Program-made: the position numbers and the translations under genes
Notes under the pieces: generated by a model
Told to the model about the DNA's origin: nothing
The model's input: the letters and a program-made list of their open reading frames with translations, nothing else
Database searches by the model: none
Part shown: positions 20,854 to 37,008 of the stretch, piece by piece
Numbering within the stretch: the first letter of the stretch is position 1
Layout: each line of letters opens with the position of its first letter
NCBI GenBank assembly: GCA_951406725.2
Contig: OX597817.1
Location: forward strand, 68,076,001-68,140,000
DNA from: Octopus vulgaris
Lineage: Eukaryota
DNA length: 64,000 nt
Reading direction: 5' to 3'

Positions 20854-20906
20854 ACTACTTCCCTTTACTTAGCCAGCAAACTGATGGCTAGGTAAAGGGA
20901 AGTAGT
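20854..20906. other. Near-perfect 22-bp inverted repeat with a 9-nt loop
   Basis: ACTACTTCCCTTTACTTAGCCA / TGGCTAGGTAAAGGGAAGTAGT, with one G:T pair. Confidence 0.85.
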
Positions 20907-20955
20907 AAACTTATAAATTATAAAATTTATGACTGAAATAACAACACCTATATTA

Positions 20956-21138
20956 CAGTTCTATATTTAAGAGATGAGGAATTATGTACATTATTTACAT
21001 TCGACGGATATTTGTCCTCATCTTGTTTGTTGTTAACACAAATTTTCGGCTGATATACCTTCCAGCCTTCTTCAGGTGTCTTGGAGAAATTTCGAACCTG
21101 GGTTCTCATTCCTAAGGTATTTTTCGATGTTGTTGTTG

Positions 21139-21178
<40 letters not shown>

Positions 21179-21307
21179 AGTCACTGCTTGGAATCGAACT
21201 CGGAATCTTGGGGTTAGTAGCCTGCGCTCTTAACCACTACGCCATATGCCCGTGGACAATTATGGAATGAATTTTAGGGTTTACGTAAATAATGTAAATA
21301 ACGTAAA
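20956..21307 (-). mobile_element. tRNA-headed, hammerhead-bearing short retroelement, locus 1
   Basis: A box at 21234-21244, B box at 21190-21201, (AAT/AAC)n, HHR at 21035-21080, tail ending ...cttaaatatagaactg. An inverted (GTAAATAAY) end piece lies at 21285-21307. Imperfect TSD at 20939-20954 / 21308-21324. Confidence 0.85.
21035..21080 (-). ncRNA. Minimal type I hammerhead ribozyme, core intact
   Basis: GACAC-CTGAAGA-A-GGCTG-(10 nt)-CAGCC-GAAA-AT-TT-GTGTT. Helix I GACAC/GTGTT, helix II GGCTG/CAGCC, palindromic mini-helix III AATT. Confidence 0.8.
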
Positions 21308-21972
21308 TAACAAACACCCATATTTTAAAGTTTTACAGACTTTGCCCCTTAATTTTCTTGGTGATTTACACAACGAGTTGTAAAATCATTGTTTGCTAAC
21401 TTCAAAGAAGTTAATTTGTCCTTCAATTAGGATAGAAAGCCTACCTTAGGCACAATCATTGCTGGGACCTCTTCTGTTGCTACACTAACGGACTCTTCAA
21501 CTTCGTTGTTACTTTCTTCATTTCTTAAAAAATTTTATATCGTGTAATTTTGTTCTAAACTGTCGGTGCAGCAAGTTATTCTCCGGTGGTATTAAAGGAG
21601 TTCAATTAGCACATCCAACCTACCTTGGCCGTGTTGTTTAAAACTCCATAAATTGCACCAAATGCCCTAAGAAATGATCTTGTACAGACACTAGGTGTTA
21701 TAAAAAGCATTGGTTAAATCGGTTGACGAAATTTCGTCAGCACCGAGAGATGGCACTGTTATATCATGTAATTTCATTGCAAATTTCGCCATCATCTGCA
21801 GCAGGCTGTCGAAAATCTGTCAAACCGATATAGTTGGACAGAAGCTAAGCAGCCAGGGATGTTGCAAAAACTAGCAGGCTGTGTACAAACTAATTACTGT
21901 TTAGCCAATCTTAAACTCTATCGGTTCGACTGTTCGACTGATTTTTTGATTTGACTTTCGGTGTTTGGTTAT

Positions 21973-35556: not shown

Positions 35557-36076
35557 AAAAGTATTTAAATTACACCTGCGTTAAACTGCGTTCACGTATT
35601 TAGTTGAAGAGAAAGTGAGGAGAAAGAAAAAGCAGAGAGAAAAAAGAGTTAGAGCGAAGACTGACACCAAAAGAGGTAGAAATAAGAAGAGGGAGAGAGA
35701 AGCGCCTATGACGTGAGGTAGGAGAGCATAATATTTATTACGTGGTTAAAAAAAAAGGTTGAGGAAATATAAGTTTAGCTGAAGTGTGATGTTCTGATGG
35801 TGAGGTTAGATAAAGGCACAGAGAGAGGAGAGAGAGGAGGAAGAGAGAGGGAGGAGGGAGAGAGGGGAGAGAAACATGATAATGGTGGTGGGGTGGGGGG
35901 GACTGAGGTGGTGGTGTTGGTGGTCACTGGATAGTGAAAAGTGTATTTTTTAAAAATTGAACTAAGTTTGTTTTTTTACATCACATATAATTTAACGCAT
36001 GTGCATAATTGAAGTTCCGTGAAATATTCACGCGAATTTACGTGACAGGTATATGCAATTGGACTAAAGGTTGATC

Positions 36077-36440
36077 CAGTTCTATACTTAAGAGATGAGA
36101 AATTACATGCATTATTTACGTTATTTACATTCGAGGGGTATTTGTCCTCATCTTGTTTGTTGTTAACACAACGTTTCGGCTGATATTCCCTCCAGCCTTC
36201 TTAAGGTGTCTTGAGGAATTTCGAACCTGCGTTCTCATTCCTAAGGTATTTTTAGATGTTATCATCATCATCATCATCGTTATTATTATTGTTTAGGTCA
36301 CTGCTTGGAATCGAACTCGGAATCTTGGGGTTAGTAGCCCGCGCTCTTAACCATGACGCCCACGGGCATATGGTGTAGTGGTTAAGAGCACTGGCTACTA
36401 ACCCTAAAATTCTGAGTTCTCTTCCAAGCAGTGATCTGAA

Positions 36441-36501
<61 letters not shown>

Positions 36502-36520
36502 GCTTCTGCTGGTGCTGCTG

Positions 36521-36577
<57 letters not shown>

Positions 36578-36744
36578 ATAATAATAATAATAACATCGAA
36601 AAATAACATAGGAATGAGAACGCAGTTTCGAAATTCCCCCAAGACACCTGAAGAAGGCTGGATGGTATATCAGCCGAAACGTGTTAACAACAAACAAGAT
36701 GAGGACAAATATCCGTCGAATGTAAATAATGTAAATAATGTAAA
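36077..36744. mobile_element. tRNA-headed hammerhead retroelement, locus 2: head-to-head inverted dimer with a perfect 12-bp TSD
   Basis: Minus copy 36077-36360 and plus copy 36361-36744. TSD TAAAGGTTGATC at 36065-36076 and 36745-36756. HHR motifs at 36165-36210 (-) and 36643-36685 (+). Confidence 0.9.
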
Positions 36745-37008
36745 TAAAGGTTGATCATATGTCCGGATTATTTGTTTTTGGTTATAGGCACTTATGCAGC
36801 TGAGGATTGCTCTGCATTTAAATTGATGTAATGGTTGCATTGTTCAATTTAATTGGAGTCACTTGAGACGATCGTACTGCACTACCTCTCGATATCCTGT
36901 TGCTTATTTTGATTTTAATCACCTTACTTTGAAACTGTATGGAAAATATCGTACTAAATTCTGGTGCCTCAACTTATGTACTTTATTCATCCGAATCTCT
37001 CTCTCTCT

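Follow-up and report, generated by a model that had tools for sequence, protein, structure and literature searches.

A tRNA-headed hammerhead unit of Octopus vulgaris is assigned to a Penelope-like retrotransposon with a template RNA likely made by RNA polymerase III

The 64,000-nt window of Octopus vulgaris DNA analyzed here (assembly GCA_951406725.2, contig OX597817.1, positions 68,076,001 to 68,140,000 of the forward strand) contains, at 20943..21324, an insertion in which a tRNA-like head is joined to a hammerhead ribozyme motif, and the question raised by this locus is what kind of element such a unit belongs to. A sequence-only reading of the window had taken it for an independent short interspersed element (SINE) carrying a hammerhead. 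That designation did not hold: the unit is almost certainly the pseudo-long terminal repeat (pLTR), head included, together with the tail of a Penelope-like element (PLE) encoding a reverse transcriptase (RT) and a GIY-YIG endonuclease, and not a free-standing SINE. Our overall interpretation, to which we give a probability of roughly 0.62, is that the insertion is a 5'-truncated copy of this retrotransposon, the template RNA of which was likely made by RNA polymerase III (Pol III) from the tRNA-derived head. Read on the minus strand from 21324 to 20943, the insertion is composed of inverted 9-mers, a leader, the tRNA-like head, (AAT/AAC)n, the hammerhead, a 9-mer stem-loop and the tail (Table 1). 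Positions are numbered within the window, offsets such as -8..0 count nucleotides before the tRNA head, and the genome comprises 2.8 Gb.

The structural assignment is based on the position of the unit relative to coding sequence. The order in the element is open reading frame (ORF), stop codon and spacer, tRNA head, (AAT)n, hammerhead, 9-mers, tail and ORF start. At one locus (L014) the tail runs on into the coding frame, and of 30 loci found by a search with the coding stretch of that locus, 29 had the tail ahead of the ORF start. At the other end of the element, the ORF end lies upstream of the leader at locus L019, and among 30 loci selected with the ORF end the leader followed in 28, the head in 27 and the body in 23, by an automated count that missed L081 through a second hit. 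Thirteen of 20 further long copies reach the ORF end, and the head follows in all 13. The leader opens with an in-frame stop (..KILDL*) and has 28-30 of its 32 bases identical to four ORF-end copies; a model in which the ORF stopped inside the tRNA head was rejected because the in-frame stop opens the leader instead. The frame from the pLTR ATG crosses the hammerhead, the 9-mers and the tail and then enters the ORF. The most nearly complete copy, L091, has an inverted tail-less arm, a short 5' pLTR with tail, a 2.3-kb broken ORF, leader, head, body and tail, and is bounded by a target site duplication (TSD) of 12 bp. As in other PLEs, pLTRs flank the ORF in both direct and inverted orientation, and the optional tail is ORF-start sequence found at one end only. 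The 9-bp repeat of the pLTR body varies from 2 to 4 copies across the family, with the frame of the ORF start preserved.

Consistent with this arrangement, the ORF of L091 contains an RT domain (RVT_1, E 5.8e-8), as do its relatives (P0001-P0018, 55-69% identity). For the C-terminal piece the nearest clusters are ones that carry GIY-YIG (0.97; the family occurs on 12-27% of their members) and the motif can be seen by eye, so that with moderate confidence we designate it a putative GIY-YIG endonuclease. The AlphaFold model of the protein had a mean pLDDT of 48, searches of PDB sequences with the protein gave no informative match, and a metagenome scan for relatives found nothing. No intact ORF was present among the best 150 of 8,247 candidates, the longest open frame being 569 aa, and the term autonomous therefore describes an ancestor. 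We take the element to be of the Penelope/Poseidon-type clade, an assignment made by eye, without a tree, from a motif (no Cys knuckle before the nuclease). Many of the loci L031-L060 are internally deleted elements made up of pLTR-tail, 150-460 nt of ORF start and a second pLTR; L040 and L051 have one common junction to the head, and in L036 and L046 the junction is formed through microhomology at the predicted hammerhead cut. A fixed end point was looked for in these internally deleted copies, and the signal was weak or scattered. The same genome also holds a different, young and probably recently active PLE family (L318-L322, e.g. G000:C16:20835000-20841000), many copies of which have intact 781-aa frames. 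Its GIY-YIG is preceded by a Cys knuckle, and CCAAT-like and cAMP response element (CRE)-like motifs abound in its 3' repeats.

The case for Pol III starts with the head. Its 74 nt are colinear with 27 distinct tRNA sequences of the same genome, with ~55% identity at best, z values of 3.5-8.2 against shuffles and tRNAs for Arg and Thr as the nearest, and its A and B boxes, though degenerate, lie at the tRNA positions, as in the head of a SINE2. The 5' ends of the copies were then counted in 89 head-bearing arms, a set from which the 35 arms of the ORF-selected set were excluded. Forty-one of the 89 ended at -8..0 and 30 inside the head, and 10 passed -15. Of 35 arms ending at -8..-2, none carried the upstream bases of the parent and 13 carried a mirror of the head, as a fold-back would leave. 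Several arms join the flank or TSD directly at -4..0.

Pol III terminates at runs of four or more Ts (T4). The sense strand of L091 (2,633 nt) has 25 T-runs of at least three and not one TTTT, where 5.9 T4 were expected by base shuffle (0 of 300 shuffles) and 3.7 by dinucleotide shuffle (P 0.017). The few T4 present in other copies are private, with 11 in 37,959 nt, and in the 20 further long copies there were 16 T4 among 215 T-runs (30,789 nt), each site occurring in at most 2 of the 20. For comparison, 11 control ORFs of the same genome were used, seven from other PLEs (five families) and four from other RT families; a twelfth (L288) was excluded, its longest frame being a microsatellite. 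T4 was present in all 11: in the other PLE ORFs, with a T content of about 0.21 and an A content near 0.40, it accounted for 30 of 106 T-runs, and in the other RT ORFs for 25 of 92. The pooled contrast of 0/25 in L091 versus 55/198 in the controls gave a Fisher P of 5e-4. When the element protein was recoded with control codon usage, the depletion had P values of 0.025 and 0.005. The pile-up of 5' ends at the head and the lack of T4 together favor transcription of the whole element by Pol III. In this form, the sequence data would mean that the full-length (2.6-3 kb) template RNA of a coding PLE is made by Pol III from a captured tRNA/SINE promoter, a proposition for which we judge the odds about even, and the same even odds apply, jointly with it, to the proposition that the ORF was purged of Pol III terminators while tens of thousands of SINE-like pLTR copies were shed.

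Several observations weigh against this reading, and some of them favor an ordinary PLE driven by RNA polymerase II (Pol II) in which an old tRNA-(AAT)n SINE is a passenger, the pile-up is due to hairpin snap-back and the lack of TTTT is compositional. Neither Rfam nor default ARAGORN called a tRNA in the head, ARAGORN with relaxed settings made inconsistent calls, in 7 of 19 heads, no cloverleaf was found on folding, and Rfam had no hammerhead match at this locus; the tRNA and hammerhead calls thus rest on motif position, folding and alignment to tRNAs. Pfam gave no GIY-YIG match on the L091 ORF. A GCCC/GGGC hairpin at -7..+4 of the head could produce such a pile-up by trapping the cDNA of a longer RNA, 13 of the 35 arms at -8..-2 show the fold-back signature, and junction palindromes have already been described for PLEs (PMC3846280). 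The shuffle with the element's own codons expects only 2.1 T4 (P 0.065, borderline), the protein is Phe-poor, as are those of its relatives, and the control PLEs are of another clade, head-less close relatives not being among them. Furthermore, the pLTR of D. virilis Penelope has an internal promoter of Pol II type (PMC2377424), and the translation of an uncapped RNA lacks an explanation. Opposing the passenger interpretation are the absence of mirror bases in 22 of the 35 arms at -8..-2, the direct joins at -4..0, the presence of T4 in all of the control ORFs, and the fact that the repeat of a control PLE has CCAAT/CRE-like motifs (identified by eye) and no A or B box. On balance we consider a Pol II-driven element with a passenger head to be rather unlikely.

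The abundance of short copies invites another interpretation, in which solo head-hammerhead-tail copies are a self-propagating SINE: Pol III would transcribe them and the PLE protein would mobilize them in trans, with no dependence on masters that bear the ORF. In a sample of 100 evenly spaced 10-kb stretches (threshold E<1e-6) there were 17 loci, which extrapolates to ~48,000 in the whole genome (approximate range from Poisson statistics, 28,000-76,000); the mean divergence from the majority base was 7.8% over 17 arms drawn from the random loci and the window, and about 5-8% for the family. In practice such loci would be mislabelled as tRNA SINEs. The tRNA SINEs that Ohshima and Okada reported from octopus in 1994 (OK, OR1 and OR2) are possibly the same short repeat. 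Compatible with a true SINE are the absence of ORF sequence from 15 of the 17 random loci (the other 2 have ORF-end sequence), the SINE-like size, the A and B boxes, and the precedents of Sm-alpha (PMC6765202, PMC2770079) and of PLE-derived retrozymes (bioRxiv 10.64898/2026.07.22.740005). Against it, what the coding element has as its pLTR is precisely this head and body, which are not a distinct non-coding unit, and the copy at 20943..21324 itself carries sequence of the parent ORF end. In addition, no variant at a frequency of at least 12% marked the short copies alone, and the polymorphisms common to short and ORF-linked copies argue against a separate SINE lineage, albeit with small ORF-linked groups (15 and 10). 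Solo copies also lack the ORF sequence past the tail that the RNA of an anole PLE requires (PMC11167929). We therefore regard an independent SINE as improbable. Tandem head-to-tail hammerhead arrays, the arrangement of retrozymes, were found neither among the 17 random loci nor in the window.

The sequence-only reading had also proposed that the two end points seen at two loci in the window reflect a mechanism, and this proposal was borne out. The second locus is as it had been described, and the window thus contains two insertions of the family and three long arms in total. To avoid selection on ends, 29 further loci (self excluded) were found with the 81-nt ribozyme core only. All 48 arm ends in this set fell into two classes, at body 140-152 (25, within the 9-mers) or 169-176 (23, tailed), and 19 of the 29 loci had an inverted pair, 17 of these pairs with one tailed and one tail-less end. 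The layout of an inverted end plus a tail therefore recurs family-wide, and over all four locus sets the same pairing was seen in 54 of 69 inverted pairs. Exact flanking repeats of at least 8 bp accompanied 35 of the 69 pairs, as compared to 20 of 410 mismatched controls, and when one mismatch was allowed 40 insertions had a TSD, with a mode of 12 bp (15/40). Five insertions sit in other repeats with paralogues among the studied loci, and for 4 of these 5 insertions the uninterrupted paralogues have the duplicated bases once; the fifth was off by 3. A chance rearrangement or assembly artefact could draw on the imperfect TSD at 20943..21324 and on the genome search having found neither an empty allele of this site nor a usable paralogue of its left flank, but is refuted at the family level by identical ends at dozens of loci, the excess of TSDs over controls and the paralogous empty sites.

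At 20943..21324 itself, direct reading confirmed the minus-strand unit with its tail from 20956 and, beside it, the inverted GTAAATAAY piece, which extends to 21311 (TRF: period 9, 3.2 copies). The flanking repeat had been given as an imperfect TSD of ~16 bp. A duplication made by insertion is supported, and its length is not, since the quoted version has one indel and one mismatch; we prefer a call of 12 bp with one mismatch, and attribute the extra 'AAATAAC' to microhomology that the target shares with the 9-mer. By comparison, the TSD of the second insertion is a perfect 12 bp (36065-36076 / 36745-36756). Similarly, the ~30-nt upstream leader inside the TSD is present, and is a misfit to a transcript starting at this head as had been noted, its extent being 32 nt. 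The left flank also has, at 20854-20906, a 53-bp near-perfect inverted repeat (87% self-match) with no other copies in the genome search.

Table 1. Coordinates and basis of assignment for features of the insertion at 20943..21324 and for the second insertion of the family in the window.
Feature	Position	Strand	Basis
Left TSD, 12 bp	20943..20954	.	Read from sequence; 12 bp is the family mode
Microhomology with 9-mer repeat, at most 7 bases beyond left TSD	20936-20942		
PLE tail, optional ~25-30-nt extension coding the parent ORF start (..SSSLKYRT)	20956..20980	-	Continuation into PLE ORF; frame
Predicted stem-loop around GTAAATAAT 9-mers, where tail-less arms end	20971..21024	-	Fold z -1.5 (weak); end mapping; analogy with PMC11167929
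Type I minimal hammerhead	21035..21080	-	Motif layout, folding, description of minimal PLE hammerheads in PMC4209133
Open frame from pLTR ATG through hammerhead, 9-mer repeats and tail	20956..21109	-	Frame comparison; start codon inferred
Microsatellite, (AAT)n/(AAC)n, separating the head from the hammerhead body	21132..21176	-	
Head of 74 nt derived from a tRNA, with A box (21244-21234) and B box (21199-21190)	21178..21251	-	Alignment to genome tRNAs
Leader: parent ORF stop codon plus 29-nt spacer, 32 nt total	21252..21283	-	Match to ORF-end copies
Minimal inverted tail-less pLTR end, three 9-mers	21285..21311	+	TRF; end class shared by 25/48 arms
Right TSD, 12 bp, one mismatch	21313..21324	.	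Read from sequence
Second family insertion	36065..36756	.	Two arms in head-to-head orientation: minus, with tail, 36077-36366; plus, tail-less, to ~36747

In the mechanism that we propose, which borrows its first steps from PLE biochemistry, the element protein would nick AT-rich DNA and reverse transcription would start at two internal RNA sites, the end of the tail and the 9-mer loop, yielding one tailed and one tail-less arm. By analogy, the predicted stem-loop in Table 1 is likely the region where RT starts, and the open frame that runs through it likely makes up the PLE protein's first ~51 codons. Most cDNAs would stop at the RNA 5' end, which we place 0-8 nt before the head, often with the cDNA end folding back on the GCCC/GGGC hairpin, and tens of thousands of short SINE-like copies would be the by-product. 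The copy at 20943..21324 may have been primed on the downstream pLTR of a longer RNA, which would have kept the 32 nt upstream of the head as part of the copy, before a switch to the 27-nt inverted end. The presence of these 32 nt implies that the source RNA read through that head.

The motif layout and fold of the pLTR are those of a type I minimal hammerhead. In this copy (21080-21035) it consists of helix I GACAC/GTGTT, core CTGAAGA, an extra A, helix II, GAAA and a 2-bp palindromic helix III, with a predicted cut between 21040 and 21039. The core is intact and helix III (21044-21041) is AATT, as the sequence-only reading had stated, where the family has ACGT. The suggestion that AATT reflects selection or covariation for dimeric folding was rejected: among 152 arms helix III was ACGT in 78, ACAT in 15, ACTT in 9, AAGT in 7, ATGT in 6 and AATT only here, ~1.2 are expected by chance from its two single changes (11/152 and 16/152), and non-palindromic CpG-decay forms are common, so that AATT is a private mutation. 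Since this locus has a single hammerhead, a dimer in cis is impossible. Of the subfamily variants in the core, the main one affects N7, a free position (T in 97 and A in 54 of 152). Among the arms, 5' ends made by hammerhead cleavage were searched for and the signal was weak, with a mild excess at body 91-110, just past the predicted cut (28 of 156 arms), that is partly due to helix II deletions.

Much of this has precedent. Inverted pLTRs, an optional tail, short TSDs and junction palindromes have been published for PLEs (PMC3846280, PMC8557442), and in an anole PLE a pair of internal RNA sites, one at either limit of the tail, serve as starting points for RT, which requires ORF sequence beyond them (PMC11167929). 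As such, the inverted-end-plus-tail layout is on its own ordinary, known PLE biology. What appears to be unreported is the tRNA-headed pLTR, the 5' pile-up at the head and the terminator-free ORF. In the literature we found no report of a tRNA-headed pLTR or a Pol III-driven PLE, and such an element is not mentioned in the available text of PMC13282606, PMC8967140 and PMC5753468; Repbase, Dfam, SINEBase, subscription papers or the repeat library of PMC13282606 may hold the family. If our reading is correct, several questions about PLEs become testable, namely the start point of the template RNA, the formation of the inverted arm, the role of the hammerhead and the translation of an uncapped RNA, and SINE-like repeats would have a route of origin that needs no separate SINE lineage.

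The closest known systems are the endonuclease-bearing PLEs (D. virilis Penelope, Anolis Poseidon PAc, Adineta Pen2a), which likewise have a single RT plus C-terminal GIY-YIG ORF starting in the pLTR, a minimal hammerhead with palindromic helix III (PMC4209133), an inverted 5'-truncated arm, an optional 30-40-nt tail, a short TSD and junction palindromes (PMC3846280, PMC8557442, PMC11167929). The octopus element differs from them in that its pLTR opens with a tRNA-derived head with A and B boxes and (AAT)n, that 5' ends pile up there and that its sense strand is free of TTTT. Schistosoma Sm-alpha and Sj-alpha similarly combine a tRNA-derived, SINE-like repeat with a hammerhead and are reported to be apparently transcribed by Pol III (PMC6765202, PMC2770079). 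As described in the text available, they are non-coding, often tandem, and have no PLE partner, tail or inverted ends, whereas the unit here is part of a coding PLE; our result suggests checking such tRNA-hammerhead repeats for PLE parents. Animal non-LTR retrozymes are short units with a type I hammerhead and have a relationship to the pLTRs of PLEs (bioRxiv 10.64898/2026.07.22.740005; PMC7761336), but they form tandem arrays without promoter motifs, in contrast to the dispersed, solo or head-to-head copies with TSDs seen here, and neither 'tRNA' nor 'promoter' occurs in the available text of bioRxiv 10.64898/2026.07.22.740005. Lastly, the TRIMp3 elements (Helenus, Ajax, Cassandra), which belong to the TRIMs, miniature retrotransposons with terminal repeats, have a small-RNA-derived Pol III promoter in the terminal repeat, for which an origin by SINE insertion has been proposed; these are non-autonomous LTR elements of up to ~1.3 kb, whereas the head here is in a 2.6-kb coding PLE (PMC10886601). 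The author of that work holds that the autonomous partners must use Pol II, in line with the usual division, which assigns coding retroelements to Pol II and reserves Pol III for SINEs and TRIMs, short and non-coding (PMC10886601). A tRNA-headed PLE with a terminator-free ORF would, if true, break that division.
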